Assembly (NCBI RefSeq): GCF_000189295.2
Contig: NC_016803.1
Location: 720,001-752,000 of the forward strand
Direction of reading: 5' to 3'
DNA length: 32,000 nt
Origin: Pseudodesulfovibrio mercurii
GTDB taxonomy: Bacteria; Desulfobacterota; Desulfovibrionia; Desulfovibrionales; Desulfovibrionaceae
Shown here: piece after piece, positions 6,175-27,726 of the stretch
How positions within the stretch are numbered: position 1 is the stretch's first letter
How the letters are laid out: the number at the start of each line of letters is the position of its first letter
The notes under the pieces: generated by a model
Seen by the model: only the letters and a program-made list of their open reading frames with translations
Told to the model about the DNA's origin: nothing
The model's database searches: none
Position numbers and translations under genes: made by a program

Positions 6175-7026
6175 TTAGTTTCGCCGCGCACAGACCACGC
6201 GATCCAGCCCGGCGAGGTCCTTTCGCACCCCAACCGCTTCGAATGATGGATATTCGCCAGCAAGGATATTCATTACCGCGCACCCCTGTTCCCAGCCGAT
6301 TTCCATGAACATCCAGCCGCCAGGCCGGAGCATGTCGGCCACGCGGGGGAGCATGGCCCGGATGTGGTCCAGGCCGTCCGGGCCGCTGACCAGCGCGCCG
6401 GTGGGCTCGAAGCCGGTGACCTCTCGGCTGGCCGCCTCGAATTCGGCCTCGGTGACGTACGGCGGGTTGGAGACGACCAGGTCGTACGGTCCTTCCGGGG
6501 TTTGGCTAGTGAAATCCGCCTGAAGAAAGTCCAGCCGGTCCGCCACGTTGTGGGTCCGGGCATTGGCGCGGGCCACATCCAGGGCATCAGGGCTGATGTC
6601 CACGGCCACGCCCCTGGCCTGGGGAAAGAGCACGGCGATGGTCACGGCCAGGATGCCGGAGCCGGTGCCGAGGTCGGCGAAACGGAAGGGCTGGTCCTTG
6701 GAAAAGCGCTCCTCCACGGCCTCGACGATGTGTTCGGTCTCGGGCCGGGGGATGAGCACGGCGGGCGAGACCGCGAAGTCGAGGCCGTAGAACTCCCGGT
6801 TGCCCAGGATGTAGGCCACGGGTTCGCCCGCCTCGCGGCGCGCGACCAGGGTTTCCACGGCGGCCAGTTCCTCGTCGGTCAGGACCCTGCCCCGGTCCAG
6901 GTTCAAGGCCGGGCGCGAGCAGCCCAGGGCGTGGGCGGCCAGGAGTTCGGCGCTCAAACGAGGCGAGTCCACGCCGGACAGGCGGGACTCGCACCGTTTC
7001 AGCACGTCCTGAATATTGCGGGGCAC
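6175..7026 (-). CDS. prmC: Release-factor glutamine N5-methyltransferase PrmC (HemK)
   Basis: SAM motif DLGTGSGILAV and catalytic motif VSNPPYV. It lies directly downstream of prfA. Confidence 0.93.
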   Translation of the reverse strand: MPRNIQDVLKRCESRLSGVDSPRLSAELLAAHALGCSRPALNLDRGRVLTDEELAAVETLVARREAGEPVAYILGNREFYGLDFAVSPAVLIPRPETEHIVEAVEERFSKDQPFRFADLGTGSGILAVTIAVLFPQARGVAVDISPDALDVARANARTHNVADRLDFLQADFTSQTPEGPYDLVVSNPPYVTEAEFEAASREVTGFEPTGALVSGPDGLDHIRAMLPRVADMLRPGGWMFMEIGWEQGCAVMNILAGEYPSFEAVGVRKDLAGLDRVVCARRN

Positions 7027-7045
7027 AGGGGCTCCTCGGGGGCGG

Positions 7046-8113
7046 CTAGTCGCCCTGCCGCTTGAGGGCTTCGGCCTGGAAGTAGCTGATCAGGGCGTCG
7101 GTCAGATCCTGCAATTCACCCTCCATGATCTGGGGAAGCTGGTGCAGGGTCAGGTTGATGCGGTGATCGGACACGCGGCCCTGGGGATAGTTGTAGGTGC
7201 GGATGCGCTCGGACCGGTCGCCGGAGCCCACCTGGCTGCGACGGTTGGCCTCCTGCTCCGCCTTGGCCTTGTCCTGCTCGATCTGGAGCAGACGGGAGCG
7301 CAGGACCTTGAGGGCCTTGGCCTTGTTCTTGTGCTGGGACTTCTCGTCCTGGCAGATGACGATCATGCCCGAGGGGATGTGGGTCACGCGGATGGCCGAG
7401 TCCGTGGTGTTGACCGACTGGCCGCCGGGACCCGAGGAGCGGAACACGTCCACGCGCAGGTCCTCGGGGCGGAGATCGATATCCACCTCCTCGGCCTCGG
7501 GCATGATGGCCACGGTCACGGCCGAGGTGTGGATGCGGCCCTGGGACTCGGTGGCCGGGACGCGTTGCACGCGGTGGGTGCCGGACTCGTACTTGAGCTT
7601 GCTGTAGACCTTGTCGCCGGAGATGGAGGCGATGACTTCCTTGTAACCGCCGGAACCGGTGTGGTTGGCGCTCATCTCCTCGACCTTCCAGTGGTTGATC
7701 TCGGCGTAGCGGGTGTACATGCGGTACAGGTCGGCCGCGAACAGGGCCGCCTCGTCGCCGCCGGTACCGGCGCGGATTTCGAGGATGATGTTCTTCTCAT
7801 CCATGGGGTCCTTGGGCAGGAGCAGGACCTTGAGCTGTTCCTCGATCTCGGGCAGTTCGCCCTCGAGGTCGTCGATCTCGGCCTTGGCCATCTCCCGGAT
7901 CTCCGGGTCGGCGTCGTTGAGCATCTCGCGGTTGTCGTCCAGCTCCTGGGAAAGCTGCTTGTACCGACGGAAGGCCTCGACCACCTCGCTCAGGTCGGCA
8001 TGGGCCTTGGAGACCTTCTTGTACCGTTCCTGATCGTTGAAAATATCGGGCTCGGCCAGTTCCTGCTCCAAAAGGACGTATTTTTCCTCAATCTCTTCAA
8101 GCTTGCCAAACAT
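7046..8113 (-). CDS. prfA: Peptide chain release factor 1
   Basis: GGQ motif ([25 protein letters not shown]) and an RF1-type length of 355 aa. There is no in-frame stop or frameshift. Confidence 0.97.
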
Positions 8114-8116
8114 GGT

Positions 8117-9043
8117 CTAGCACTCCTCGGCGTTAACGGCGCAGCGCAGGGCGGCGATGGCCACCTCAAGCTGGCTGTCGTCGGGTTCCTTGGTGGTCAG
8201 CAACTGCATCATCAGACCGGGCCAGCACAACAGCTTGCACAGCCAGTTCCGGCTGTATTTCCCGGCGAACTTGATCATCTCATAGGCCACGCAACTGACC
8301 GGAATCATGAGAAAGAGCTTCATACCGACGATGTACAGGTGTTTGACGGCGAAATGTTCCGGCGAATAGAAGGTCAACAGCCATGGCACGAGCACGGCGT
8401 AGAGCACGATGGACACCGCCAGGACGAAGAGCAGGAAGGCGGTGCCGCAGCGCGGGTGCAGGCGGCTGTAGAAACGGCTGGACGCCGGGGAGAGCTCCTT
8501 GCCCTCCTCCCAGGTCCAGATGACCTTGTGCTCGGCCCCGTGGTACTGGAAGACCCGGCGAATGTCCGGGATGTACGAGATGGCCAGGATGTAGCCGACG
8601 AAGACGATCATCTTGATCAGCCCGTCCCAGGCGTGGAAACTCAGGGAGTCCACGTCGCCGCCCAGGCCGAGCAGCTCCATGCCCAGGGACAGGAAATGGG
8701 GCACGACCACGAACAGGCCGAGCGCCGCGCCCAACGCCACGACCATGGTCAGGACCAGGTGCCACGTGGTCAGCTCGCCGCCCTCCTCCTCGGAGTCCTC
8801 GGCGGCCTGCATGGCGGAATAATTGAGGGCCTTGATGCCGTTGACCATGGTCTCCATGAGCACCGGGAAGCCGCGCAGGAAGGGTTTCTTGAGCAAGGGA
8901 TGCCTGACCATGGTGAACCACGGACGGACCTCGGTGACGATCTCGCCGTCCGCCTTGCGGACGGCAATGGCGAGATTGTCCCGGGCGCGCATCATCACGC
9001 CCTCGATCACCGCCTGGCCGCCCACGGCCTGGGGTGCGGCCAT
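8117..9043 (-). CDS. DUF1385-family membrane protein (YqhQ-like)
   Basis: The motif GGQAVIEGVMMR, the HGAEHK motif and several TM helices, in the common rpmE-DUF1385-prfA-prmC arrangement. I prefer the ATG at 9043 (GAGGAA RBS) over the TTG at 9067. Confidence 0.85.
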   Translation of the reverse strand: MAAPQAVGGQAVIEGVMMRARDNLAIAVRKADGEIVTEVRPWFTMVRHPLLKKPFLRGFPVLMETMVNGIKALNYSAMQAAEDSEEEGGELTTWHLVLTMVVALGAALGLFVVVPHFLSLGMELLGLGGDVDSLSFHAWDGLIKMIVFVGYILAISYIPDIRRVFQYHGAEHKVIWTWEEGKELSPASSRFYSRLHPRCGTAFLLFVLAVSIVLYAVLVPWLLTFYSPEHFAVKHLYIVGMKLFLMIPVSCVAYEMIKFAGKYSRNWLCKLLCWPGLMMQLLTTKEPDDSQLEVAIAALRCAVNAEEC

Positions 9044-9165
9044 CGTCAGAATTCCTCGCAGTCTCAAGCAGATACCCTCCGGTAAAGGAAACGGTCCCCG
9101 GGTCGGCCCGCGCCATGTCCCGTGTACGGAGAATCATGGATTCCCCGTCGATTGTAAAGCGCCGG

Positions 9166-9213
9166 ATAAAACAATATGCCTCCGAAGGGTACGCGACCCC
9201 ACCGAAGGCATAT
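9166..9213 (-). terminator. Candidate intrinsic terminator or attenuator after rpmE
   Basis: On the - strand: ATATGCCTTCG...CGGAGGCATAT, an 11-bp stem with one G-U pair and an internal GGGT/ACCC pairing, followed by TGTTTTAT. Confidence 0.45.
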
Positions 9214-9241
9214 GGTCTCGGCTTGCGCCGAAAAAACGAAG

Positions 9242-9469
9242 CTACTTGGACTTGGCGGCCAGGGTGCTCAGATCGCCGTACTTCTTGCGGAAGCGGTCGA
9301 TGCGGCCGGCGGTGTCCACGAAGCGCTGCTTGCCGGTGTAGAACGGATGGCAGTTGGCGCAGATTTCCACCTCGAACTCCTCACCCTTGGTGGTCAGCAG
9401 CTCGGCCTCGTAACCGCAGTGGCAGCGGACCTTGGCCTTGTAAGTCTTGGGATGAATATCGTTTTTCAT
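9242..9469 (-). CDS. rpmE: 50S ribosomal protein L31 (Zn-ribbon type)
   Basis: [10 protein letters not shown]...CHCG...[12 protein letters not shown], 75 aa. Confidence 0.97.
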
Positions 9470-9660: not shown

Positions 9661-9978
9661 CTAGACGCAGCCGGTGGGCTTGGGCAGGCCGGCCATCTTA
9701 CAGGCTCCCTTGCCGGGTCCGGACGGGAACAGTTCGTAGATCTGCTTCAGCTTGAAGCCGGTGACCTTGGAGAGGATACGGACCATCGGAGCGATACCGT
9801 TCTTCTTGTAGTAGTCCTGCAGGAAGTCGATGACTTTCTGGTGATCCTCGGAGATCTCCTTGATGCCCTCGGATTCCTTCACGTATTCGACCCAAACAGG
9901 GGTCCAGTCTTCAAATTTCTGCAGGAAGCCGTCTTCGTCAACTTCGAAAGAAGAGCCCTGGAATTCAACAACAGCCAT
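9661..9978 (-). CDS. dsrC: Dissimilatory sulfite reductase subunit DsrC (TusE/DsrC family)
   Basis: The 105-aa product carries the diagnostic C-terminal arm CKMAGLPKPTGCV with two conserved Cys. A TAGGAGGA RBS precedes it. Confidence 0.95.
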   Translation of the reverse strand: MAVVEFQGSSFEVDEDGFLQKFEDWTPVWVEYVKESEGIKEISEDHQKVIDFLQDYYKKNGIAPMVRILSKVTGFKLKQIYELFPSGPGKGACKMAGLPKPTGCV

Positions 9979-10103
9979 TGTATCCTCCTAAGTGGATGTT
10001 TGTCTTGCTGTAGCTCCGAGGGTTCCCGGAGCGACCTTATCCATTTAAACAGCGATCCGCTGCTTAGCTGCGATCCAAAAGACCGGTGTAAAACCGTGGA
10101 GGG

Positions 10104-10132
10104 ACATTACGTCGCCTCCCCAACCTTGTCAA
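10104..10132 (-). promoter_or_regulatory. Strong sigma-70-like promoter for dsrC
   Basis: On the - strand: TTGACA (10132-10127), a 17-nt spacer, then TAATGT (10109-10104). This predicts a leader of about 115-120 nt. Confidence 0.55.
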
Positions 10133-10188: not shown

Positions 10189-11916
10189 CTAGGATTCCAT
10201 GAGTTCGGACAGATGATCGCGAGCATACTCCAAGGACGGGTCCATGTCGAGGGCCGCCCGCAGGTAATCCTCCGCCTCCTGCCGGTTGCCCAGGAACTTG
10301 TGGCACAGGCCGAGATTGGCCAGGTCGTGGGGCGAGCCGCTGTCGATGTCCAGCGAGGCCTTGAAGTCCTCGGCGGCCAACTCGTACCGGCCGCCCTTGA
10401 AGTGGGCCACGCCGCGCAGGTTGAAGAACTCCCGGCACTCGCGGTCCAGCGACACGGCCCGGTCCAGAAGTTCGACGGTCTCCTCCCACGCCTCCATCTG
10501 GGACAGGGCGTAGGCCTGGTAGAAGACCGCCAGGCCGCGCTCGGCGTCGGCCGGTTGCAGGTCCACGGATTCCTCGAAGCAGGCCGCCGCGTAAAGCGGA
10601 TCGCCCATGCGCAGGGCCAGCAGTCCCCGGAAGAACGGAAGGAAGTACGCGCCGGGGTAAATCTCCTCAAGCACGTCCAGCCCCTCCAGGGCCTCGTCGA
10701 AGTCCGCGTCCTCGGCCAGGATGCGGCCCACGAACAGGCCAATGGACCGGTGCGGGGTGCGCTCCCGGAAGTCGAAGCCGGGCACGAAGTTATAGTTGGC
10801 CGTGACCATCAGCTCCGGGTGCCGGGTGTCCACGGCGTAGAGCGTGTCGCCCTTGTCCGCCAGCCCTCGGGCCAGGGCGGTCAATTCATTATATATGTCC
10901 CCGTCCTCCACCGTGGGCAGGGAATCGAGGGGGACCACGCCGCCCCGCTTCAGCCACTCGATCTGATCGAGTTCGGTGAACTTGGGCAGCCCCGAGGCCT
11001 CGTACACGCGGCTGGTCTCGAAGTCGCCCGCCAGTTGGGCCACCTCGGTCACGGCGCGGATGGCCGCCTTGACCGGCGAGGCCGCGGTCCCGGCGGTGAA
11101 GACGATCTCGCTCAGGGCCGGGAAGGTCTTGCGGTCCCAGGCCACGGCGGCCACGGTGGGCACGGGATAGCCGAGGCTGAAGTCCTTGAGAATTATGGTC
11201 ACGCCGTTGCGCGCGAAGCAATCGAGCAGACGGCGCAGGACCGGATCGCCGCAGGTGGCCGGGTCAATGGTCGGGGTGACCTGCCGGGAGCGGTCGATGA
11301 GCGCGCAGACGTGCCGCTCCACCAGCTCGCAGGCCCCCTGTGCGATGGACTCCTCGAAGGTGTTCCCGGCGGAGGAGCCGTTGAATTCGTTGAGCTTCTT
11401 GAACCAGTCCAGGGGGACGTACTCCTCCCGCCCGGCGGCCACGTTGAGGGCCGGGTGGAACCTCCAGCGGATCAGGTCCAGGAGCCGGACGGCCTTGTCC
11501 GGCCCGATGTTCTCGCCCACCGAGCGGATCACCTGGCCGACGTCCATGACCCGGCCCGGCCAGCGGGCCTGGGCCTCGGACCAGGTCAGTTCGGTGAAAT
11601 TCTCCGGGTCGGCCCAGAAGCTGAAATAGGAGAAGCGCTCCACCAGCTCCATGAGGGCCGAGGCCTCGGCCTGCTCCGGGGACGCGCCCTTGCCCATCTG
11701 CTTGCGGGTGGGCATGACCTCGCGGGCCTCGGGGCCGCACTCGCTGACGAACACCGGGATGCCGAGACGGCCGGTGTCCACCCGGTCGGTCCGGGCCAGG
11801 ACGCCGCTGCACTTTTCGGCCAGGGCGGCCTTGACGCGGGCCACGGTCTCCACCGGGCTGCACGCCTTGTCCTGGTCCGTGGTGAAGGATTTGGGACAGT
11901 TTCCGAGTTCGATCAC
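10189..11916 (-). CDS. ycaO: YcaO-domain protein with a C-terminal TPR domain (standalone, E. coli-YcaO-like architecture)
   Basis: YcaO core pattern: RVDTGRLGIPVFVSE...KGASPEQAEASALMELVERFS...NGSSAGNTFEESIAQGACELVERH. The C-terminal region of about 170 aa has TPR repeats. The start is set at GTG 11916 (RBS AGGAAGG), overlapping the upstream gene's stop as GTGA. The upstream part of the 842-aa track ORF is out-of-frame overlap. Confidence 0.85.
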   Translation of the reverse strand: MIELGNCPKSFTTDQDKACSPVETVARVKAALAEKCSGVLARTDRVDTGRLGIPVFVSECGPEAREVMPTRKQMGKGASPEQAEASALMELVERFSYFSFWADPENFTELTWSEAQARWPGRVMDVGQVIRSVGENIGPDKAVRLLDLIRWRFHPALNVAAGREEYVPLDWFKKLNEFNGSSAGNTFEESIAQGACELVERHVCALIDRSRQVTPTIDPATCGDPVLRRLLDCFARNGVTIILKDFSLGYPVPTVAAVAWDRKTFPALSEIVFTAGTAASPVKAAIRAVTEVAQLAGDFETSRVYEASGLPKFTELDQIEWLKRGGVVPLDSLPTVEDGDIYNELTALARGLADKGDTLYAVDTRHPELMVTANYNFVPGFDFRERTPHRSIGLFVGRILAEDADFDEALEGLDVLEEIYPGAYFLPFFRGLLALRMGDPLYAAACFEESVDLQPADAERGLAVFYQAYALSQMEAWEETVELLDRAVSLDRECREFFNLRGVAHFKGGRYELAAEDFKASLDIDSGSPHDLANLGLCHKFLGNRQEAEDYLRAALDMDPSLEYARDHLSELMES

Positions 11917-12638
11917 GCGGCCTTCCTCTTCATGCGGAACAGGTTGATGACGTTTTCCTCGCCGGTCTCGTTGTCCTTGTAGTTGGCCGCCGACTTCATC
12001 ATGGCGAAGGTTTCGGCCGCCTTGTCGAAAAACTTCCGGCCCTGCCGCTTGCGGTCCATGGCCATGAAGACCTCGGCGGACGGGGTCTCGGCCAGATGGG
12101 CGCCGAGGAAGTCCGCCAGAGGCTCGTAGACAGCCTCCTCGTACAGGACCTCGCAGCCGATGATGTAGTCGAAGCGGCACCCCAGGGAGTCCCTGGTGAA
12201 GTCCACCCGCCGGATGTCCACCAGGCCGTCCAGGCCGTTCTTCAGCACGTTGATGCGGCTGAACAGCAGGGCGTAGGGTTCCACGTCGCTGACGGTCACG
12301 TGGTGGCCGAGCTTGGCCATGACCATGCCGTTCACGGCGCAGCCCGTGCCCACTTCGAGGACCGAGCAGCCGGGCGTGAACGGAAACCGGGTCAGGGTGT
12401 AGCCCAGGACCAGGCAGGAGGGCCAGACCTTGGCCCACAGGGGCAGGGAAATCTTCTTGCCCGACCGAGTCCGGTCCACCAGCTTGTCGAGATACTTGGG
12501 CATCTGTTTGACCTGGAGGATCTCCAGGGTCTGGTCGCCGATGGTCACGGGCTCGAACCCGACCTCGCCGAACTCCCGCACGGCGAGGTCGATGAGCGCA
12601 CCGATGGGCTGTTCCAGGTTGAAAACGGTATCCGCCAT
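11913..12638 (-). CDS. Class I SAM-dependent methyltransferase, protein-(lysine)-methyltransferase-like (Methyltransf_16/METTL21-like pattern)
   Basis: LPLWAKVWPSCLVLGYTL...VLEVGTGCAVNGMVMAKLG.HVTVSDVEP...DYIIGCEVLY, with a GGAGGG RBS. Its stop overlaps the YcaO start. Confidence 0.8.
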   Translation of the reverse strand: MADTVFNLEQPIGALIDLAVREFGEVGFEPVTIGDQTLEILQVKQMPKYLDKLVDRTRSGKKISLPLWAKVWPSCLVLGYTLTRFPFTPGCSVLEVGTGCAVNGMVMAKLGHHVTVSDVEPYALLFSRINVLKNGLDGLVDIRRVDFTRDSLGCRFDYIIGCEVLYEEAVYEPLADFLGAHLAETPSAEVFMAMDRKRQGRKFFDKAAETFAMMKSAANYKDNETGEENVINLFRMKRKAA

Positions 12639-12658: not shown

Positions 12659-12675
12659 GGCCTCTCGAAGAGGCC
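12659..12675 (-). terminator. Short hairpin between the Tim44-like gene and the methyltransferase gene (weak terminator or processing signal)
   Basis: GGCCTCT-cga-AGAGGCC, a 7-bp stem. The - strand has only a weak T tract (TTCGTATT) before the methyltransferase RBS. Confidence 0.3.
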
Positions 12676-12680
12676 GTGTT

Positions 12681-13529
12681 TTATTGGTCTATCGAATTGA
12701 TCCTTTCCAGGACCCACAGTCCGCCGGGCGTGGTGTCGTCGCGGTCGAACTCCCAGACGGCGCGGTATCGGACCGGACGGCCCTCCTCGCCCACGCGCAA
12801 CTGCGCGTCGTAGTGCACGGAGGCCGTGGTGCGGCCGTTGTCCGAATGCAGCTCCGTAAGCAGGGCCGAGACGAGCATGACCTCGGTGCGGGGGCGTTCC
12901 CCGGCGGCCACGGCATCGCTGTAGACCCCGTCGGACAGAAAGTCGCGGAGATCGTCGTAGTCTTCCTTGTCGCGGGCCTGCTGGAAGCGGGAAAAGAGGA
13001 CCTTGGCCCCTTCCAGGAACTCGGCCTCGTCGAACCCGTCGGCGCGCAGGGACGAACCCGTGGGCGTCCCCGTGGGGGTCGTGGGCTCGGGCCGCTGGCC
13101 GGGTTCCCTGGAACCGAGCATGTCCCAGGTGCGGCGGGCCGCCTCGTGGCGGTCCATGGTCCGGGCCTCGGGCCGTTGGGCGGTGCCGTCGTCGGACCGT
13201 ACGTCGGGCCGGGTCTCGCCGGAGCCGTCCTCGTCGCCGGGCTTGTCCGGGTAGTCGGGCCGGGACCAGCGACCGGGCCGGGTCCGGTCGTCGTCATTGC
13301 CGCCGGAACGACGCCGGAAGGCGCGGACCAGGAAATAGGCGATGAGCACCAGCAGGAGGATGTTCAGGATGGAGCCGGTGCGGCTCGGGGCCGCGGCCTG
13401 GGCAAGGGCCGGGGTGGCCGTGAGCAGGACCAGGACGGACGCGGTCAGCAGCCTGCCCAGGCAACGTGCCCGGCGGTGCGCCGAACGGCCGGACGCACCG
13501 GCCGCGATTGCATGGATGACGTTGTGCAT
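12681..13529 (-). CDS. Membrane protein with a C-terminal Tim44-like domain
   Basis: Signal or TM region (LLTASVLVLLTATPALA, ILNILLLVLIAYFLV), a long charged disordered linker, then a Tim44-like pattern (FDEAEFLEGAKVLFSRFQQA...WEFDRD...WVLERI). The start is taken at ATG 13529 because the upstream part of the track ORF overlaps the response regulator gene out of frame. Confidence 0.7.
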   Translation of the reverse strand: MHNVIHAIAAGASGRSAHRRARCLGRLLTASVLVLLTATPALAQAAAPSRTGSILNILLLVLIAYFLVRAFRRRSGGNDDDRTRPGRWSRPDYPDKPGDEDGSGETRPDVRSDDGTAQRPEARTMDRHEAARRTWDMLGSREPGQRPEPTTPTGTPTGSSLRADGFDEAEFLEGAKVLFSRFQQARDKEDYDDLRDFLSDGVYSDAVAAGERPRTEVMLVSALLTELHSDNGRTTASVHYDAQLRVGEEGRPVRYRAVWEFDRDDTTPGGLWVLERINSIDQ

Positions 13530-13564
13530 GGGTGTTTCGTAAAACAAAGTCGGCGGACAGGCAA

Positions 13565-13963
13565 TCAATCGATGAGCGCGAGGTTGCGCAGGATGGCGTA
13601 GAGGCTCTCCACCTCGATGGGTTTGGGCAGATAGGCCGCGGCCCCGCCCTTGTAGTAGGCCCGGACCACGGTCTTTGGGTCGTTCAGGGCGGTGATCATG
13701 ATGACCTTGGCCTCGTCGGCGGCGGAAACGCCCGCCTCCTGCTCCATGGCCCGGATGTCCTTGAGGGCCTGGTGGCCGTCCTTGTTGGGCATCATGATGT
13801 CCATGCAGACCAGATCGTAGGGACGACCTTCGGCAATGGCCCGGCGGAAGGCGTCCACGCACTCCACGCCGTCGGAGGCCGTGTCGCATTCGCCGAAATC
13901 GGACAGCAGCGCGGTCAACAGCTTGCGGCTGGTGAATTCGTCTTCAACTATAAGAATACGCAT
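13565..13963 (-). CDS. Single-domain response regulator (receiver only)
   Basis: MRILIVEDE..., phosphoacceptor context LVCMDIMMPNKDG, and ITAL...KPI. An AAGGAG RBS precedes it. Confidence 0.9.
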   Translation of the reverse strand: MRILIVEDEFTSRKLLTALLSDFGECDTASDGVECVDAFRRAIAEGRPYDLVCMDIMMPNKDGHQALKDIRAMEQEAGVSAADEAKVIMITALNDPKTVVRAYYKGGAAAYLPKPIEVESLYAILRNLALID

Positions 13964-16966: not shown

Positions 16967-17254
16967 ATGCTCAAAACGCTCGGAATGATCGCCTGGATCG
17001 GATGCCTGATGACCCTGGCCTGGCAGGGCGCGGCCTGGGCCGTGACCGGGTCCTGGCCCTCCATAACCCTCATGACCGTGCTCGGCAAACTGCTCGGCAT
17101 GGACCTGCTGACCCTGGCCGGGAACCTCCCCCTGGACGTGGCCGCCAAGGCGGCATACGTGCTCGTGACCACGGAAGTGGCTGTTTTCCTGTGGTGGTCC
17201 GGAGTGGCCCTGTTTGGTCTGATGTTCGCCCTCGGCCTCCTTGGCCGAAAGTAA
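16967..17254 (+). CDS. Small hydrophobic membrane or secreted protein upstream of the rnf-associated cytochrome
   Basis: GC3-rich codons and a signal-like N-terminus (MLKTLGMIAWIGCLMTLAWQGAAWA) plus further TM helices. The start is uncertain among 16931, 16967 and 16985. Confidence 0.45.
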   Translation: MLKTLGMIAWIGCLMTLAWQGAAWAVTGSWPSITLMTVLGKLLGMDLLTLAGNLPLDVAAKAAYVLVTTEVAVFLWWSGVALFGLMFALGLLGRK

Positions 17255-17381
17255 ATTCTGCATAATCCCGATTCTTCCGGACGACGCTCGTCGTAACCCG
17301 AAAACCCCTTTAGGGTATGGACTAAACCCCACGGTTTCAGCTACAAGTTTGTATTCCGCTCTAACCCATGAGGTCGCTCCA

Positions 17382-18122
17382 TTGCAGAAACGGTATCTTC
17401 CCATCGCCATCGTGACCGGCATCCTCTTTCTTGTCGCCGCAGGCGGCTATCTGGCCCCTGCCGGCTCCGAGGGACCGCCCGTGCGCGTGCTCCTGGAGAA
17501 CAAGGGGGGCAAGGTCATCCTGAACCATGCGCAACACATCGGCGACATGGACGGCCGATGCGTCGACTGCCACCACACCTCGGACGCGGACCGGGATCCG
17601 GTCGCCTGCTCCACCTGCCACGTGGCCAAGTTCGACGAGAACTTCAAGGTCGCGCACCAGGACGCCATGGACGAAAAACAGTGCGGGGCCTGCCACCACG
17701 CCGGGGCGACCATCGCCAGGTTCAACCACGACGAGCACGCCGAGAACTACGCCTCCGGCGACTGCCTCTCCTGCCACCACGGCAAGGACATCGAGCCCGA
17801 ACCCCAGGCCTGCTCCAACTGCCACAAGGACGGAGCCGAATCCCGGCCGAGCCTGCGCGACGCGGCCCACGCCCGGTGCGCGGACTGCCACGACGACTTC
17901 TACAAGGAAGGGGCCGTGGGCTGCACCCGCTGCCACGAGCGCAAGGCCGAACCGGCCGACCAGACGGACTACCAGGCCTGCGCCGACTGCCACACCGGGA
18001 CCGTGGACAGGCTGATCCCCACCACCATGACGGCCTACCACGACCAGTGCCGGGGCTGCCACGAAAAGAACGGCAGCGGCCCGTTCAGCGACGACGCCTG
18101 CTACCAATGCCATATGAAATAA
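17382..18122 (+). CDS. Decaheme cytochrome c (rnf-associated)
   Basis: Ten CxxCH motifs: CVDCH, CSTCH, CGACH, CLSCH, CSNCH, CADCH, CTRCH, CADCH, CRGCH and CYQCH. An N-terminal anchor (QKRYLPIAIVTGILFLVAAGG) follows. I prefer the TTG at 17382 (GAGG 7 nt upstream); the track ORF's TTG at 17241 adds an AT-rich segment that looks non-coding. Confidence 0.85.
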   Translation: MQKRYLPIAIVTGILFLVAAGGYLAPAGSEGPPVRVLLENKGGKVILNHAQHIGDMDGRCVDCHHTSDADRDPVACSTCHVAKFDENFKVAHQDAMDEKQCGACHHAGATIARFNHDEHAENYASGDCLSCHHGKDIEPEPQACSNCHKDGAESRPSLRDAAHARCADCHDDFYKEGAVGCTRCHERKAEPADQTDYQACADCHTGTVDRLIPTTMTAYHDQCRGCHEKNGSGPFSDDACYQCHMK

Positions 18123-18136
18123 GGGACCGAAGCACC

Positions 18137-19342
18137 ATGAGCGATTTCAACTTCAGCCTGCTGTGCGGCGAGACCGGGCCTTTGACCACGGCCTCCCGGC
18201 CCGACATGCTGCGCCTTCCCATGGAGGGCATGACCCCGGTCCTGGCCGTGGGCGAGCAGGTCCTGGCGGGCGCCAGGGTGGCCGTAGGCAACGGCCCGGA
18301 CAAGGGCGACCTGCACGCCCCCCTGGCCGGAACCATCCTTGAACTGGAGCCCCACTCCATGCTCATCGAGGCGGACGCCGGGGGCAGGACCGAACCCGTC
18401 TCCCCCTGCGCCGAGGGCGGCGAGCCGCTCAGGCGTTGGCTCAAATCCATGGGCGTGGACGTGGGCCTGATGTACAAGGCCCCCACCCTGATCATCAACG
18501 CGGTTCCGCCCGAGCCCGGCATCTCGGTCTACGAGCCCCTGCTGCGCGACTACCGCAAGACCCTGCAACTGGGCCTGGACACGGTCCAGAAGGTCGTCGA
18601 GCCGGGCAGGATGTTTCTGGTGGCGGCCAAGGGCAACCAATCCACGGCCTTTGCCAACTGCACCGTGGTCCACGTCACCCCGGTCTACCCCAACGGGCTC
18701 GACCCCCTGGTCTTCAAGGCGGTCCTCAAGGAGGAGGTCCTGCCCGGCTCCCGGCCGGACAAGGCCACCATCCTGTCGGTCAAGGACCTGTACGCCGTGG
18801 GCCGGGTCATGGAGACGGGCCGTCCCGTGACCGAGACGCCCATGACCATCGGCGGGCAAAACCTGCTGGTCCGCGTGGGCACGCCCGTGGGCTTCCTGGC
18901 CGTCGAGGCCGGGGCCCGGCTCCAGCCCGGCGACCGCGCCGTCCTGGGCGGCCCCCTGCGCGGCCTGGCCGCGGTCAACCTGGAACAGGGCGTGGACAAG
19001 GACACCAGCGGCCTGACCCTCATGCGCCAAGACGCCAGCCTCGAGACCACGGACAACTTCTGCCTGGGTTGCGGGGCATGCGAGCGCCACTGTCCGGCCC
19101 GGATCATGCCCGGCATGATCAGCCGATGCGCCGAATTCAAGCAGTTCCAGCGGGCCGAGGCCTACCACATCCACTCCTGCATGGAGTGCGGCCTGTGCGG
19201 CTACTGGTGCACGGCAAGGCGCCCGCTGCTGCAATACATCCGCCTGGCCAAGTACGAGCTGGCCCTGCTGGCCGGCGCCCACGCCCCGACCGGGCCCACG
19301 GACGAAGAACTCAAGGAGCGGACAGGAGACTCGCAATGCTGA
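18137..19342 (+). CDS. rnfC: Rnf complex subunit C, short form lacking recognisable NADH/FMN-binding motifs
   Basis: RnfC_N-like segment (LHAPLAGTILELEP), SLBB-like region (VRVGTPVGFL...LGGPLRG), and two 4Fe-4S motifs (CLGCGACERHCP, CMECGLCGYWC). The ATG at 18137 lies just after the cytochrome stop. Confidence 0.85.
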   Translation: MSDFNFSLLCGETGPLTTASRPDMLRLPMEGMTPVLAVGEQVLAGARVAVGNGPDKGDLHAPLAGTILELEPHSMLIEADAGGRTEPVSPCAEGGEPLRRWLKSMGVDVGLMYKAPTLIINAVPPEPGISVYEPLLRDYRKTLQLGLDTVQKVVEPGRMFLVAAKGNQSTAFANCTVVHVTPVYPNGLDPLVFKAVLKEEVLPGSRPDKATILSVKDLYAVGRVMETGRPVTETPMTIGGQNLLVRVGTPVGFLAVEAGARLQPGDRAVLGGPLRGLAAVNLEQGVDKDTSGLTLMRQDASLETTDNFCLGCGACERHCPARIMPGMISRCAEFKQFQRAEAYHIHSCMECGLCGYWCTARRPLLQYIRLAKYELALLAGAHAPTGPTDEELKERTGDSQC

Positions 19343-20316
19343 AGCCGCTGAATCCCATCCTGACCGTGGCCGTCGCGCCCCACGTGCACTGCGGACGGAC
19401 CATCCGGCGCCACATGATCGACACCCTCGTCGCGCTCTTGCCCGCGGCCCTCATGGCCGTGGTCGTCTTCGGCATGGGGGCGCTCAGGGTCATGGCCCTG
19501 TCCTGCGCCGTGGCCGTGACCACCGAGGCCCTGCTCAACCGGATCATGAAACGCGAACAGTCCGTGGACGACTACAGCGCCCCGGTCACCGGCCTGCTCT
19601 TCGCCTTCCTGCTCCCGGCCTCAAGCCCGTGGTGGCTGGTGACCATCGGGTCGTCCGCCTCCATCACCCTGGGCAAGATGATTTTCGGCGGCCTGGGCGG
19701 CAGCCCGCTCTGCCCGCCCCTGGTAGGCTGGGCCATGTGCCGCATCTCCTGGGGGAGCTGGATGGACACCAACGCGACCATGCTCTCCTCCCAGCTGGCC
19801 GCGCCCCTGCAACAGCTCAAGTATTTCGGCGTGGAGTCCATCGCCTCCATCCACTACCAGGACCTGTTCCTGGGCAACCAGCTCGGCGGCCTGGGGGCCG
19901 TCCACGTGGGCGCCCTGCTGGTGGGCGCCGCCTACCTCCTGCTGCGTGGGCACATCTCCTGGGAGATCCCGGCCGGGTTCCTCGGCGGACTGCTGCTGAC
20001 GGCCTGGATCTACCGCTTCATGGACCCCGCGGCCTACGCCCCGCCCCTGTTCCACCTGCTGGCGGGCGGCGCGGTCTTCGGAGCCTTCTTCCTGGCCACG
20101 GACCCGTCGTCCAGCCCCATCGGCAGGCTGCCCGACGTGATCTTCGGGCTCATGGCCGGGGCCATGGTCATCGTCATCCGGGTGTACGGCACGTACCCCG
20201 ACGGCGTGCCTTTCGCCATCCTCCTGGCCAACCTGTTCACCCCGCTTCTGGACCGCATCCGGCCCCGCCCCTTCGGCGGCCCCTACTCCTTCCTAAACGG
20301 CAGGGAGGGCGCATAG
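19336..20316 (+). CDS. rnfD: Rnf complex subunit D
   Basis: Polytopic membrane protein with the NqrB/RnfD signatures GKMIFGGLGGSPLCPPLVGW, TNATML and FLATDPSSSP...YPDGVPFAILLANLFTPLLD. It overlaps the rnfC stop (ATGCTGA). Confidence 0.92.
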   Translation: MLKPLNPILTVAVAPHVHCGRTIRRHMIDTLVALLPAALMAVVVFGMGALRVMALSCAVAVTTEALLNRIMKREQSVDDYSAPVTGLLFAFLLPASSPWWLVTIGSSASITLGKMIFGGLGGSPLCPPLVGWAMCRISWGSWMDTNATMLSSQLAAPLQQLKYFGVESIASIHYQDLFLGNQLGGLGAVHVGALLVGAAYLLLRGHISWEIPAGFLGGLLLTAWIYRFMDPAAYAPPLFHLLAGGAVFGAFFLATDPSSSPIGRLPDVIFGLMAGAMVIVIRVYGTYPDGVPFAILLANLFTPLLDRIRPRPFGGPYSFLNGREGA

Positions 20317-20892
20317 ATGAAGGATATGATCAAGATGGTCCTGGTCCTGTCGCTCATCTGCGGGCTGTCCGGACTGACCCTGGCCTCGGTGCGCCACGCC
20401 ACCTCCGCGCGCATCGAGGAGCAGGTCATGACCTACGTGCAGGGCCCGGCCCTGAAGGACATCTTCTCGAACTACGACAACAACCCGATCAAGGACCGCA
20501 AGACCTTCGACCTGCCGACCGGGACAGTGACCGTGTTCCCGGCCATGAAGGACGGCAAGCTCCTGGGCGTGGCGCTGGAGACCTTCGGCAAGGGGTTCGG
20601 CGGCCCGGTGGGCATCATGGTCGGCTTCAACACCGACGGCAGCGAGTTGGTCGGCATCGGCACGACCACCCTCAAGGAGACGCCCGGCCTGGGCATGCGC
20701 CTGACCGAGCCGGACTACCGCGACCAGTTCCGGGGCCACAGCACCAAGTCCGTGGAGCTGACCAAGAACGGCGGCGACATCGCGGCCATCGCCGGGGCGA
20801 CCATCTCGTCCACGGGCAGCGTGGCCGCGGTCAACGAAGCGATCCGGATTTTCAACCAGATCAAGGACAAGATCCACGCCACGTGGTCCTGA
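20317..20892 (+). CDS. rnfG: Rnf complex subunit G (FMN-binding)
   Basis: N-terminal TM helix, ETPGLG, and the flavinylation-site context AIAGATISSTGS. Confidence 0.9.
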   Translation: MKDMIKMVLVLSLICGLSGLTLASVRHATSARIEEQVMTYVQGPALKDIFSNYDNNPIKDRKTFDLPTGTVTVFPAMKDGKLLGVALETFGKGFGGPVGIMVGFNTDGSELVGIGTTTLKETPGLGMRLTEPDYRDQFRGHSTKSVELTKNGGDIAAIAGATISSTGSVAAVNEAIRIFNQIKDKIHATWS

Positions 20893-20905
20893 CAAGGAAA
20901 GCGCC

Positions 20906-21583
20906 ATGAGCACATTGTGGAAGGAATTCTCCAAGGGACTGTGGACGGACCTGCCGCCGTTCAAACTGGTCCTGGGGCTGTGCCCCACCCTGGCCGTGAC
21001 CAAGACGGCCTACAACGGCTTCGGTATGGGCGTGGCCGTCATCTTCGTCCTGGCCCTGTCCAACATGCTGGTCTCCATGCTCAGCCGGATCATCCCCTCC
21101 AAGGTGCGCATCGCCTGCTTCATCGTGGTGGCGGCCTCCCTGGTGGTCTGCGTCGAGCTGCTCATGCAGGCCTACGCCTACCCCCTGTACCAGCAGCTCG
21201 GCATCTTCGTGCCCCTCATCGTGGTCAACTGCATCATCCTGGGACGGGCCGAGGCCTTCGCCTCCAAGAACCCGGTGCTGCTGTCCATCGCCGACGGCCT
21301 GGGCATGGGGTTGGGCTACACCCTGTCGCTGACCTTCCTGGGCTCCCTGCGCGAGCTGTTCGGCTACGGGACCTGGTTCGGCATGCAGGTCATGGGCGGC
21401 TGGTTCAAACCCTTCGGCTTCATGGTCGAGGCGCCGGGCGCCTTTGTCTGCCTGGGCGTACTCCTGGCGGGGATGAACGCCCTGACCAATTGGCAACGGA
21501 AAACCAAGGGACTCGAGGCCATCCAGGGCCCGGTCCACGATTGTAAAACCTGCGGCATGTGTGCCAGCAAACCGAGGATGTAA
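20906..21583 (+). CDS. rnfE: Rnf complex subunit E
   Basis: LVLGLCPTLAVT...GIFVPLIVVNCIILGRAEAFA, which is the NqrD/RnfE pattern. The C-terminal tail ends HDCKTCGMCASKPRM. Confidence 0.93.
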   Translation: MSTLWKEFSKGLWTDLPPFKLVLGLCPTLAVTKTAYNGFGMGVAVIFVLALSNMLVSMLSRIIPSKVRIACFIVVAASLVVCVELLMQAYAYPLYQQLGIFVPLIVVNCIILGRAEAFASKNPVLLSIADGLGMGLGYTLSLTFLGSLRELFGYGTWFGMQVMGGWFKPFGFMVEAPGAFVCLGVLLAGMNALTNWQRKTKGLEAIQGPVHDCKTCGMCASKPRM

Positions 21584-21585
21584 TC

Positions 21586-22083: not shown

Positions 22084-22084
22084 C

Positions 22085-22660: not shown

Positions 22661-22672
22661 GAGTTTGACGCT

Positions 22673-27707: not shown

Positions 27708-27726
27708 GGCGTTCCCCGTTCCCGTC

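Follow-up and report, generated by a model that had tools for sequence, protein, structure and literature searches.

A METTL21-type methyltransferase gene overlapping a YcaO-TPR gene next to dsrC in Pseudodesulfovibrio mercurii

Described relatives of the two proteins

In E. coli, YcaO is the thioamidase of Met82 in ribosomal protein uL16, and its sulfur donor is still unknown (Biochemistry 2026, PMC13063428). The same study ties slow divergence of YcaO proteins to a fixed protein substrate as opposed to RiPP enzymes, and describes a match in charge between the enzyme and uL16 (PMC13063428). The McrA-glycine thioamidation YcaO of methanogens (TIGR03266, 'methan_mark_1'; MJ1094, 6pe3/6peu; M. 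kandleri, 6ci7) also acts on a folded protein and not on a RiPP. The M. jannaschii enzyme needs no TfuA and operates in cells rich in sulfide. METTL21/family-16 lysine methyltransferases (METTL21A-D, VCP-KMT, CaM-KMT, EEF2-KMT/FAM86A) usually produce a single trimethylated lysine on an abundant non-histone protein.

For sulfate reducers, a 'YcaO-like TPR protein', DVU2210, has been described in Desulfovibrio vulgaris (Zane, Wall & De Leon 2020, PMC7774982). Molybdate resistance arose when deletion of sat was combined with loss of DVU2210 or with the change S195R in its ATP motif; E. coli carrying DVU2210 was not sensitized to molybdate (PMC7774982). The paper reports the molybdate phenotype only and proposes molybdate activation, without mention of a methyltransferase or DsrC (PMC7774982). 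DVU2210 is also recurrently mutated in lines evolved under syntrophy, and the list of mutated genes in these lines is likewise headed by genes of sulfate respiration (sat, aps, dsrC) (PMC8319347).

The window analyzed here is a stretch of 32,000 nucleotides of the Pseudodesulfovibrio mercurii genome, to which all coordinates refer. Its YcaO protein is the orthologue of DVU2210, a protein whose function is unknown and whose molybdate-sensitivity phenotype had escaped the initial annotation of the locus. Both share the YcaO-plus-TPR architecture, and the YcaO proteins from the genus of DVU2210 (L073, L077, L078, L080) are 60-61% identical to ours over the full length, with a nearly identical ATP motif (SAGNTEEESILQG.CELVER versus SAGNTFEESIAQGACELVER here). 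By residue count on Nitratidesulfovibrio sequences, without an alignment of DVU2210 itself, the serine exchanged in S195R corresponds to S190 here. A Methyltransf_16 gene precedes ycaO in that genus, too, but it is separated from ycaO by 87-150 nt instead of overlapping it, and dsrC resides elsewhere in the genome and not next to ycaO.

Several features are shared with E. coli YcaO. Both proteins are stand-alone, of comparable size (~580 aa in E. coli) and equipped with a C-terminal helical-repeat (TPR) domain; both are strongly acidic (pI 4.4 in E. coli, 4.7 here), TfuA-independent and slowly diverging, the E. coli substrate being a protein. Their fold alignment extends over 550-630 columns and includes the C-terminal repeats. 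On the other hand, sequence identity amounts to only 17-20%, the equivalog model for the uL16 enzyme, which is described as a Pseudomonadota group, yields 51 bits where 700 are required (NF040716), and E. coli YcaO has neither a methyltransferase partner nor a link to dsrC. The initial annotation had connected the E. coli enzyme with RimO and S12, a view outdated by the uL16 work, and had tentatively placed a methyltransferase gene near the archaeal ycaO-tfuA locus.

Gene anatomy and family assignment

The methyltransferase gene (12638..11913, minus strand) encodes 241 aa from an ATG start preceded by GGAGGGAAGA. Its product (11913..12638, minus strand) belongs to the Methyltransf_16/METTL21-like family-16 seven-beta-strand SAM methyltransferases, as borne out by Pfam (PF10294, E 1.9e-12, 47.8 bits versus a cut-off of 21), a PDB sequence search in which METTL21A and METTL21B are the top solved relatives, sequence motifs, an AF2 model (pLDDT 90.7) and Foldseek. 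Motif I reads LEVGTGCAV, a segment LPLWAKxW is invariant among homologues, and the (D/E)xxY post-II motif that is shared, like motif I, with the METTL21/family-16 enzymes reads GCEVLYEE; in 20 homologues its glutamate (E163) is invariant, while Tyr or Phe occupies the tyrosine position. Foldseek ranks 1-13 are held exclusively by chains of METTL21A-D, VCP-KMT and CaM-KMT, rank 15 by FAM86A, likewise a lysine methyltransferase, and the predicted fold matches these enzymes with TM scores of 0.66-0.78. The bacterial protein nevertheless differs from them in its low sequence identity (~20%), an additional N-terminal helix/beta-hairpin module (residues 12-56), its translational coupling to YcaO and its unknown substrate. 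In some sources homologues carry the automatic annotations 'nicotinamide N-methylase' or 'ubiquinone methylase'.

The ycaO gene (11916..10189, minus strand) starts with GTG and encodes 575 aa, comprising a YcaO domain (residues ~1-390; 10747..11916, minus strand) defined by Pfam, NCBIfam, Foldseek and invariant residues, and a C-terminal TPR domain of 11 helices (residues ~391-575; 10189..10746, minus strand). Pfam YcaO matches residues 74-381 with 192 bits, residues ~395-572 match several TPR families (TPR_1, TPR_2, TPR_16 and related ones), and the TPR helices are visible in the AF2 model (pLDDT 94). The ATP/Mg-binding motif is intact (E90, E93-R94, S182-A-G-N185, E188-E189-S190, Q193, E197, E200-R201), and across an alignment of 31 sequences its core Glu and Arg residues do not vary. 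A regular expression written for the motif matched Desulfovibrionales sequences only and found no match in the two distant members tried (L090, L108). The TPR domain is even more acidic than the whole protein (pI 4.28, net charge about -23), and we presume that it serves to dock a basic surface on another protein.

By sequence and fold, the nearest relatives of YcaO are the TfuA-independent, protein-thioamidating enzymes of methanogens and E. coli. In both sequence and fold, the thioamide-forming enzymes of M. jannaschii and M. kandleri match best: the McrA-glycine model is the top NCBIfam match (104 bits), and the M. jannaschii entries 6peu and 6pe3 lead the Foldseek list, with TM scores for this group of 0.72-0.77 on the target. 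However, the equivalog cut-off of 365 is missed by a wide margin, methanogen YcaOs are ~380 aa long and lack the TPR domain, our host lacks methyl-coenzyme M reductase, and the present YcaO is partnered by a lysine methyltransferase and has dsrC as its neighbor. Since the protein scores far below the cut-offs of all characterized YcaO subfamilies in NCBIfam, its chemistry is itself inferred. With the azoline-forming cyclodehydratases (LynD, TruD, McbD, SagD; TIGR03604) it shares the ATP-grasp-like YcaO fold and the ATP motif, but it lacks an E1-like/RRE partner, whether fused or separate, as well as a dehydrogenase and a precursor, reaches 64 bits with the TOMM model against a cut-off of 219 and continues into TPR repeats after the YcaO domain. 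In TOMM YcaOs the C-terminal end is rich in proline.

The two genes overlap by GTGA (11913..11916, minus strand; ...AAGAGGAAGGCCGC-GTGA-TC), the GTG start of ycaO (11916..11914) lying over the TGA stop of the methyltransferase gene (11915..11913). The start codon is correct, since all homologues retain M1, L4, C7 and K9. A Shine-Dalgarno-like AGGAAGG is located 5 nt upstream of the GTG within the end of the methyltransferase gene, and judging from the sequence and its conservation, overlap and AGGAAGG constitute a translational coupling signal. No genes for TfuA, ThiS/MoaD, E1-like/Ocin-ThiF or FMN-dehydrogenase proteins were found among the window genes scanned, nor does the ycaO-dsrC spacer of 66 loci contain a conserved small open reading frame of ≥20 aa. 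Several earlier claims were hereby upheld: the METTL21-type assignment by sequence, motif and predicted fold, the GTGA overlap with a 575-aa YcaO bearing C-terminal TPRs, and the absence of a TfuA, E1-like or dehydrogenase partner and of a precursor ORF. Profile and structure searches placed both proteins, one as METTL21-type and the other among the thioamidating YcaOs, and the proposal of a protein-modifying pair instead of an azoline RiPP system is supported.

Conservation of the gene pair and its link to dsrC

Among 56 related loci that contain the methyltransferase gene, 51 show a stop/start distance of -8, -7, -4, -1 or 0 to +5 nt. With an overlap or a gap of at most 5 nt in so many loci, the arrangement is not due to chance. 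The coupling of the two genes is conserved across the Desulfovibrionales, the opposite of the loss of synteny that would have spoken against a functional pair, and next to a methyltransferase orthologue of 43% identity the gene order is again Tim44-methyltransferase-YcaO-DsrC. The methyltransferase is confined to the Desulfovibrionales (0 of 75 evaluable distant loci); it is missing from the Humidesulfovibrio/Desulfocurvus clade, from Desulfomicrobium and from every distant locus, and it is a lineage-specific addition. All named members of the YcaO-TPR family reside in sulfate- or sulfur-metabolizing lineages (Desulfovibrionales, Desulfobulbus, Desulfatiglandales, Thermodesulfobacterium).

The neighboring dsrC gene (9978..9661, minus strand) encodes a bona fide DsrC of 105 aa, the sulfur carrier in dissimilatory sulfite reduction (Pfam DsrC, 121.7 bits; TIGR03342, 117 bits) with the C-terminus ...CKMAGLPKPTGCV and both cysteines, CysB93 and CysA104. 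Among 73 evaluable Desulfovibrionales loci, 59 have dsrC directly downstream of ycaO, including loci that differ in the rpmE/prfA genes on its far side, and it adjoins ycaO in eight distant loci with YcaO proteins of only 33-40% identity, contig GC contents of 0.33-0.60 and unrelated flanks; in one of them (L086) the order is swapped, dsrC preceding ycaO. The link is thus deeply conserved and broader than the initial annotation had it. The adjacency is absent from Nitratidesulfovibrio (to which D. vulgaris Hildenborough belongs), Desulfomicrobium and most distant loci. A neighbor-joining tree places the dsrC-linked distant loci beside the Desulfovibrionales clade.

Other genes recur next to ycaO. 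Of 75 evaluable distant loci, 23 encode a sulfur transferase of the LarE family (TIGR00268, 324 bits) directly upstream of ycaO, and none combines it with an adjacent dsrC. A MoaE-like gene directly follows ycaO in eight Desulfomicrobium loci and comes after dsrC in Desulfonauticus, dsrE genes are found near L085, and mnmA adjoins ycaO in a Thermodesulfobacterium-like locus (L089). Several distant ycaO loci have no sulfur-related neighbor.

Transcription of dsrC has its own signals. A sigma-70-like promoter (10104..10132, minus strand) consists of TTGACA (10132..10127), a 17-nt spacer and TAATGT (10109..10104); the latter agrees with the consensus in three of six positions, so that a consensus scan left it unlisted. 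An alignment of 12 loci from several genera shows no variation in its TTGACAA box. From the ycaO stop codon (10191..10189) to TTGACA we measured 56 nt, in keeping with the 60 nt previously given. The conserved 5' leader (10013..10062, minus strand), identified by motif scan and RNAalifold, forms two hairpins, CAGCG-GAT-CGCTG (10062..10050) and GCTCCGGGAACCCTCGGAGC (10032..10013), the second of which exhibits compensatory changes in five pairs. The element is present exactly or with one mismatch in 24 loci and matches no Rfam family.

DsrC as candidate substrate or partner

In D. vulgaris, DsrC is reported to carry di/trimethylated K48, mono/dimethylated K58, trimethylated K78 and monomethylated K90, and its peptide LK*EVYELFPSGPGK was scored as "Trimethylation+Oxidation" in three independent pull-downs; no enzyme has been assigned to either modification (PMC3125180; PMC4023394 supplement). 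All four lysines are present in the protein studied here. The peptide contains no Met, Trp or Cys, and its +16 shift is nearly isobaric with a thioamide (+15.977 for O-to-S versus +15.995 for oxidation). The instrument could not resolve trimethylation from acetylation (0.036 Da) and therefore could not have resolved O-to-S exchange from oxidation. The shift may also stem from common oxidation of a side chain or from a hydroxylated Tyr, Phe or Pro. The large-scale methylation calls of 2008 are of low confidence, and ApsA/ApsB were found trimethylated as well (PMC3125180; PMC4023394 supplement). As K78 is invariant also in clades without the methyltransferase, its conservation does not track the enzyme.

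Because the pair stays beside dsrC across very distant relatives, DsrC is a likely but unproven target. The reading we regard as best, albeit one that falls a little short of being probable, is that the pair matures DsrC by lysine trimethylation and backbone thioamidation. The overlapping genes would give rise to a co-translated protein-modifying enzyme pair acting on, or with, DsrC. The YcaO domain would use ATP to activate a backbone amide, and sulfide would replace the carbonyl oxygen, yielding a thioamide; free HS- in the sulfide-rich cytoplasm would render a TfuA/ThiS helper dispensable, consistent with the closest structural relative, the McrA-thioglycine YcaO of M. jannaschii. The acidic TPR domain would dock the substrate by its basic C-terminal half (residues 61-105 of DsrC, pI 9.9), following the charge logic of E. 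coli YcaO and uL16, and the methyltransferase would trimethylate a lysine of the same protein. The likeliest site would be the conserved LK78-x-(I/V)-YELFPSGPGK90 at the base of the catalytic Cys arm. The earlier suggestion of DsrC as a speculative target thereby gains support from the lysine trimethylation and the unexplained +16 on one peptide, yet it is still an inference, and direct evidence for DsrC as substrate or as sulfur-delivering partner is lacking for both enzymes. Against this reading stand the separate promoter of dsrC, which is not co-translated with the pair, the suitability of an acidic YcaO for a basic ribosomal protein, and the LarE, MoaE-like and DsrE neighbors, which are sulfur donors and not substrates, so that DsrC may be a donor, too.

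The main rival, which is possible, takes up this last point: DsrC would be the sulfur donor, and YcaO-TPR would thioamidate another protein such as uL16 or a sulfate-reduction enzyme. A persulfide or trisulfide of DsrC would supply the sulfur, just as the DsrC paralogue TusE supplies it to MnmA, LarE-type, MoaE-like or DsrE proteins would be donors in other lineages, and the methyltransferase would modify that other target or ApsA/ApsB. This is favored by the alternation of DsrC, LarE, MoaE-like and DsrE as YcaO neighbors, the last three of which handle sulfur and are implausible substrates, by mnmA beside ycaO in L089, by a YcaO as acidic as the uL16-modifying enzyme, by the still unidentified donor of the latter and by trimethylation of ApsA and ApsB. 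The TusE-MnmA relay is a conceptual parallel, combining a DsrC-family carrier with an ATP-dependent carbonyl-to-thiocarbonyl enzyme; MnmA, however, is a PP-loop enzyme acting on tRNA, our DsrC is a true respiratory protein with both cysteines, and there is no evidence for sulfur transfer from DsrC to YcaO. Furthermore, a dedicated donor appears superfluous in a sulfide-rich cytoplasm, the M. jannaschii enzyme manages without TfuA, the trimethyl+16 DsrC peptide is left unexplained, and the score with the uL16 model is poor. The roles of substrate and donor are not mutually exclusive. That dsrC is a mere bystander through inherited gene order, the pair having an unrelated target or modifying each other, is unlikely. 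The invariant promoter and structured leader of dsrC, the retention of the pair without the adjacency in several genera (L042, L055, L059, L073, L078, L080), the tree position of the dsrC-linked distant loci, for which one ancestral arrangement could suffice, and the distant loci without sulfur-related neighbors speak for it. Yet the adjacency outlasts replaced surroundings (YcaOs 33-40% identical, contig GC from 0.33 to 0.65) and survives the order swap in L086, the remaining recurrent neighbors are all sulfur-transfer proteins, and the published DVU2210 phenotypes arise in sulfate-respiration contexts.

Zane et al. proposed that DVU2210 adenylates or phosphorylates molybdate or, physiologically, a sulfur oxyanion (PMC7774982). 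That YcaO-TPR is such a small-molecule- or oxyanion-activating ATPase and the methyltransferase acts on small molecules is very unlikely in our view, even though the molybdate resistance of the sat/DVU2210 double deletion and the ATP-motif mutant and the small-molecule methylase labels of some homologues point that way. To our knowledge, no characterized YcaO acts on anything other than peptide or protein backbone amides, TPR domains bind proteins and peptides, the methyltransferase has the (D/E)xxY signature and protein lysine methyltransferases as top fold matches, DVU2210 did not sensitize E. coli, and the labels are merely automatic. A cryptic azoline or amidine system, its precursor encoded elsewhere or too small to be noticed, is extremely unlikely. 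YcaO proteins owe their renown to RiPP pathways, and the fold matches include LynD, TruD and McbD; but there is no E1-like/RRE partner, dehydrogenase, protease, transporter or conserved small ORF, the TOMM score is low, YcaO identity of 60-90% across genera indicates the slow divergence that fits a fixed protein substrate (PMC13063428), and the locus belongs to the core chromosome, amid housekeeping genes.

Returning to DsrC maturation as the preferred reading, the union of literature and locus facts, the thioamide chemistry and the molybdate mechanism that follows are all inferred and no more than possible. Molybdate or thiomolybdate taking the place of sulfide would cause futile ATP hydrolysis and thereby DVU2210-dependent molybdate toxicity. 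Modification of DsrC would tune sulfite reduction, and it would be non-essential for this process, given that sulfate respiration persists in the mutant lacking DVU2210.

A conserved, co-translated methyltransferase-YcaO pair

The gene for the 241-aa methyltransferase (12638..11913, minus strand) shares the tetranucleotide GTGA, which contains its own stop and the start of the following gene, with that for the 575-aa YcaO-TPR protein (11916..10189, minus strand), and a ribosome-binding sequence, AGGAAGG, is located inside the end of the methyltransferase gene. On the same strand, genes for a response regulator (13963..13565) and a Tim44-like protein (ending at 12681) precede the pair, while dsrC (9978..9661) follows it and is itself succeeded by rpmE, a DUF1385 gene, prfA and prmC in this order (6175..9469). 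The window proteins are 89-91% identical to Pseudodesulfovibrio proteins. For a broader comparison, one genome per species was scanned by alignment with YcaO-TPR, which yielded 529 relatives; the best 80 loci, all from Desulfovibrionales, were analyzed. The methyltransferase gene lies immediately 5' of the YcaO gene in 56 of the 80, and in 51 of these 56 the stop of the former and the start of the latter overlap or are separated by no more than 5 nt, the exceptions being Nitratidesulfovibrio and one Solidesulfovibrio contig. What emerges is a conserved co-translated pair, made up of a family-16 lysine methyltransferase together with a stand-alone YcaO that carries TPR repeats. The translational coupling put forward in the initial annotation is confirmed, and instead of the loss of synteny in related genomes that would have spoken against it, conservation across Desulfovibrionales is observed.

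A gene for DsrC, the sulfur carrier of dissimilatory sulfite reduction, is present immediately 3' of YcaO in 59 of the 73 loci with enough flanking sequence, even in genera in which the genes past dsrC differ entirely. Humidesulfovibrio and Desulfocurvus retain YcaO-dsrC and are missing the methyltransferase, Nitratidesulfovibrio and Halodesulfovibrio retain methyltransferase-YcaO without an adjacent dsrC, and in Desulfomicrobium YcaO has neither neighbor. The two links are therefore separable, with YcaO as their hub, and within the same loci YcaO is conserved far better (60-90% identity) than the methyltransferase (36-87%).

Several features of the surroundings deserve mention. The response regulator and the Tim44-like protein (12681..13963) are found upstream of the methyltransferase in many Desulfovibrionaceae loci, and in Humidesulfovibrio the Tim44-like gene immediately abuts YcaO. 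As the 42-nt Tim44/methyltransferase spacer is filled by a GC-rich hairpin, GGCCTCTTCGAGAGGCC (12659..12675), the pair may be subject to transcriptional attenuation or have a transcription start of its own. The gene order past dsrC is kept in Pseudodesulfovibrio and Maridesulfovibrio; it includes a second protein methyltransferase, PrmC, which acts on a release-factor glutamine, and the DUF1385 membrane protein, a constant companion of prfA/prmC. Genes for energy metabolism occupy 17241..24775 and 25431..29540 and encode multihaem cytochrome c, Rnf subunits, a large Fe-S/flavin oxidoreductase, cytochrome b and a 758-aa multihaem cytochrome fused to TPR repeats. No recognizable partner of the pair was found among these energy-metabolism genes.

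The methyltransferase matches Pfam family PF10294 (Methyltransf_16) with 47.8 bits, well above the gathering cut-off of 21, and nearly all of its 108 homologues carry the same annotation in precomputed form. Among solved structures, METTL21A and METTL21B are closest to it in sequence. In 20 aligned homologues there is an invariant LPLWAKxW segment, a motif I (ExGxGxG) reading LE95-VG97-TG99 in which E95, G97 and G99 are invariant, and a post-II motif, GCE163-VL-Y166, with invariant E163 and either Tyr or Phe at position 166. A post-II motif of the type (D/E)xx(Y/F) defines the family-16 seven-beta-strand lysine methyltransferases. When the AlphaFold2 model (pLDDT 90.7) was submitted to Foldseek, ranks 1-13 were taken by METTL21A/B/C/D, VCP-KMT and CaM-KMT chains (E values from 3e-13 to 4e-10), and FAM86A appeared at rank 15. 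On the grounds of Pfam profile, motifs, solved relatives and fold, and by all tests applied, the protein is very likely a seven-beta-strand protein-lysine methyltransferase. The original Methyltransf_16/METTL21-type assignment consequently holds; enzymatic activity is only inferred, and neither lysine methylation nor the substrate can be read from the sequence. A paralogue sharing 31% identity (P0105) was ruled out as a member of the system as it has no adjoining YcaO.

A stand-alone YcaO of the DVU2210 family

The YcaO domain of YcaO-TPR (residues 74-381; Pfam PF02624, 192.4 bits, cut-off 25.7) is followed by TPR repeats. Following the motif definition Sx6-7Ex3Qx3ExxER plus an N-terminal ExxER (PMC7774982), the ATP/Mg motif is represented by S182-AGNTF-E188-E189-SIA-Q193-GAC-E197-LV-E200-R201 and E90-LV-E93-R94, and alignments of 12-31 homologues show little or no variation in its residues. 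Judged by curated NCBIfam cut-offs, the protein falls in no characterized YcaO subfamily. The best model, that for McrA-glycine thioamidation (TIGR03266), gives 104.3 bits against a cut-off of 365, followed by the azoline TOMM model (TIGR03604) with 64 against 219 and the E. coli-type model (NF040716, 'YcaO_for_S12') with 51 against 700. With the AlphaFold2 model (pLDDT 94) as query, Foldseek retrieved the thioglycine-forming YcaO from M. jannaschii, then E. coli YcaO, then LynD and M. kandleri YcaO; the E. coli structures (4q84-4q86) align over 550-630 columns with a TM score of about 0.5.

Although TIGR03266 is its top model, the relationship of the window protein to the McrA-type enzymes is only distant, and whereas most of these adjoin tfuA in hosts with methyl-coenzyme M reductase, the window locus belongs to a sulfate reducer and no TfuA was found in it. 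Of the companions of azoline TOMM YcaOs, no E1-like/Ocin-ThiF partner or FMN dehydrogenase was found among the window genes scanned, and no conserved small ORF that could encode a precursor peptide. With E. coli YcaO, whose TfuA-independent thioamidation of ribosomal protein uL16 was demonstrated in 2026 and which possesses a TPR domain of 150 residues (PMC13063428), it shares the stand-alone architecture, a domain of helical repeats at the C terminus and an acidic pI, which is 4.4 for the E. coli protein (PMC13063428), 4.7 for YcaO-TPR and 4.3 for its TPR domain. Genes for TfuA, ThiS, E1-like proteins or dehydrogenases were not detected among the window genes scanned, and no conserved precursor-peptide ORF emerged when ORFs of at least 20 aa were sought in the YcaO-dsrC spacers of 66 loci. 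The absence of such partners and of a precursor, already stated in the initial annotation, is thereby upheld. A recurring spacer peptide, 'KQRIAV', was rejected as a precursor; it arises from in-frame reading of a conserved RNA/DNA element. Homologues of LarE, MoaE-like proteins and DsrE are likewise lacking in the window. Because of its relatives in fold and profile searches, the lack of partner genes and the lack of a small ORF, YcaO-TPR likely resembles the thioamide-type YcaOs that modify protein backbones rather than the RiPP cyclodehydratases. The chemistry is inferred from distant similarity only.

The protein belongs to the same family as DVU2210 from Desulfovibrio vulgaris Hildenborough. 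It is collinear and 60-61% identical over residues 1-573 with the YcaO-TPR proteins of four Nitratidesulfovibrio loci (L073, L077, L078, L080), and the ATP motif of the Nitratidesulfovibrio loci is the same as in the window and matches that printed for DVU2210; the assignment rests on these loci and the printed motif, not on a direct alignment with DVU2210. DVU2210 has been described as a 'YcaO-like TPR protein' of unknown function, the deletion of which, or a change in its ATP motif (S195R), renders a sat deletion strain resistant to molybdate (PMC7774982). This sensitivity phenotype is known for proteins of the DVU2210 type only from D. vulgaris, and the 2020 study mentions neither a methyltransferase nor DsrC (PMC7774982). 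DVU2210 is also recurrently mutated in lines evolved for syntrophy, where sat, aps and dsrC likewise top the mutated genes (PMC8319347).

YcaO-TPR proteins among sulfur-carrier and sulfur-transfer genes

In an exhaustive profile search, the most distant full-length YcaO-TPR proteins retrieved shared about 33% identity. From contig look-ups and scanning of metagenomes, 89 distinct distant loci were assembled, of which 75 were evaluable. Named members originate from a Desulfobulbus MAG, Desulfatiglandales, Thermodesulfobacterium and 'Deltaproteobacteria', and every named member of the DVU2210 family stems from a sulfate- or sulfur-metabolizing lineage. The methyltransferase was not encountered in any of the 75 evaluable distant loci. 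A bona fide dsrC adjoins YcaO in eight of the 89, either 3' (L088, L090, L092, L094, L095, L098, L099) or 5' (L086), and residues 81-105 of its product are identical to those of window DsrC. These eight contigs range in GC content from 0.33 to 0.60 and their flanking genes are unrelated. In a neighbor-joining tree they are placed beside the Desulfovibrionales clade, while the LarE-linked loci described below form the other large clade. The simplest history is an old YcaO-dsrC linkage retained under selection rather than repeated gains. The seven loci with dsrC at the 3' side (L088, L090, L092, L094, L095, L098 and L099) contain a larger unit, with a DUF2934 protein of about 165 aa encoded 5' of YcaO and a conserved protein of ~530 aa without assigned family after dsrC, followed by a MiaB-like radical SAM protein.

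In 23 of the 75 evaluable distant loci, the gene immediately 5' of YcaO on the same strand encodes a LarE-family ATP-dependent sulfur transferase (TIGR00268, 324 bits, cut-off 150; L085, L108, L110, L113, L115, L128, L131, L137-L140, L142, L144, L145, L147, L150, L153, L154, L156, L157, L159, L160 and L167). No genes for LarB or LarC were seen in these LarE-linked loci. It is conceivable that this PP-loop protein is an undescribed sulfur-delivery partner of a YcaO. A CxxC...C pattern is present in the two LarE-family sequences examined. Within the Desulfovibrionales, Desulfomicrobium carries a gene for a 120-aa MoaE-like protein 12 nt after YcaO (Pfam MoaE, E 5e-9; L065 9738-10100, also L043, L046, L048, L051, L057, L069 and L075), and in Desulfonauticus such a gene follows dsrC (L060 10233-10586). 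In roughly a dozen further genera it is situated 3-4 kb downstream; whether in these or in the preceding cases, it may simply be housekeeping MoaE. The MoaE-like neighbor is intriguing beside the molybdate phenotype of DVU2210. DsrE genes occur near YcaO in one distant locus and mnmA at a Thermodesulfobacterium-like locus. YcaO-TPR is thus genomically embedded among sulfur-carrier and sulfur-transfer genes. Many distant loci, including L081, L083, L084, L087 and L173, offer no informative neighbors. At L084 (locus GC 0.35), a gene for a PrmA-like protein of the ribosomal protein L11 lysine methyltransferase family (4044-4880, minus strand) is divergent from YcaO-TPR; this may be chance or an alternative methyltransferase partner.

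DsrC as a putative substrate

Methylation of D. vulgaris DsrC at K48 (di/tri), K58 (mono/di), K78 (tri) and K90 (mono) has been recorded (Gaucher et al., 2008, via the supplementary table of a review). In three independent pull-downs, the DsrC peptide LK*EVYELFPSGPGK was listed as 'Trimethylation+Oxidation', and trimethyl-lysines were found in ApsA and ApsB as well (Chhabra et al., 2011). [quoted passage not shown] Residues 77-90 of DsrC read LKEVYELFPSGPGK. The peptide LK*EVYELFPSGPGK is devoid of Met, Trp and Cys, and the corresponding segment is invariant in 67 of 67 aligned DsrC sequences. Chhabra et al. (2011) stated that their mass accuracy was insufficient to resolve trimethylation from acetylation, which are 0.036 Da apart. 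It is our inference, not theirs, that an exchange of O for S (+15.977) could therefore not be distinguished from oxidation (+15.995) either. The additional 16 Da may be trivial oxidation.

The C-terminal half of DsrC is basic (pI 9.9) and YcaO-TPR is acidic; charge complementarity has served to tie enzyme to substrate in the study of E. coli YcaO (PMC13063428). As K48, K58, K78 and K90 are invariant in the 67 DsrC sequences whether or not the methyltransferase is present, asking which lysine tracks with the enzyme is uninformative. The sole position correlating with it is residue 40 (9861..9859): Lys occupies this position in 40 of the 46 loci that have the methyltransferase and in none of the 21 that do not. 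Phylogeny confounds the correlation, and in D. vulgaris the residue is Ser despite the presence of the methyltransferase. The dsrC gene is outside the translation unit of the pair and has its own, invariant promoter. Its leader (10132..9979, minus strand) is conserved past the promoter, at the same place in L001-L026, L063, L072 and other loci, and comprises an invariant TTGACAA box, an invariant hairpin, CAGCG-GAT-CGCTG (10062..10050), and a second hairpin (10032..10013) whose pairing is kept by compensatory changes in five pairs. An Rfam scan of the leader returned no real match. The leader may serve this very highly expressed gene as a regulatory RNA element or as a site for protein binding.

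Of the readings offered, we consider best that the pair matures DsrC, while holding it slightly more likely to be wrong than right, with target and chemistry both inferred. YcaO-TPR would introduce a backbone thioamide near the base of the C-terminal catalytic Cys arm of DsrC and the methyltransferase would trimethylate Lys78. A bolder version, which can be entertained as a possibility, places the thioamide in the invariant segment before the Cys arm and confines Lys78 trimethylation by the coupled METTL21-type enzyme to the Desulfovibrionales. The DsrC link is limited by the fact that dsrC is not adjacent in several genera. The main rival is possible as well: DsrC would supply sulfur, like LarE, MoaE-like proteins and DsrE elsewhere, and the target of thioamidation would be encoded at another site. 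Maturation of DsrC and a donor role are not mutually exclusive. That adjacency to dsrC is without function is unlikely in view of its persistence among otherwise dissimilar flanking genes; the genera lacking it fit this view. Activation of an oxyanion, as first proposed for DVU2210, accommodates the molybdate phenotype and is very unlikely. A cryptic RiPP system is the least likely reading, no precursor or partner genes having been found.

Both enzyme classes and protein thioamidation by stand-alone YcaOs were already known. New are a YcaO partnered with a putative lysine methyltransferase, a link to dsrC that runs deep and associations with LarE and MoaE-like proteins. No paper joining YcaO with DsrC, or DsrC with a thioamide, turned up in the literature searched; queries for YcaO with dissimilatory sulfite reductase and for LarE with YcaO gave one match each, both irrelevant. 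To our knowledge, no protein thioamides have been reported beyond two, both at catalytic centers of ancient machines, methyl-coenzyme M reductase and the ribosome. If the reading is true, DsrC would join McrA and uL16 as the third protein known to be thioamidated, the first such case in a respiratory pathway of bacteria; the long-missing DsrC methyltransferase would be identified and the DVU2210-dependent sensitivity to molybdate explained. The main biological route to sulfide depends on DsrC, a protein for which the tuning of the catalytic arm is not understood. LarE-type sulfur transferases and the MoaE-like protein may represent new partners that deliver sulfur to YcaO enzymes. The locus is also relevant to the practice of applying molybdate as an inhibitor supposed to be specific for sulfate reducers, and it links three unexplained published facts in one hypothesis: the function and molybdate phenotype of DVU2210, the trimethyl-lysines and the recurrent +16 on DsrC.
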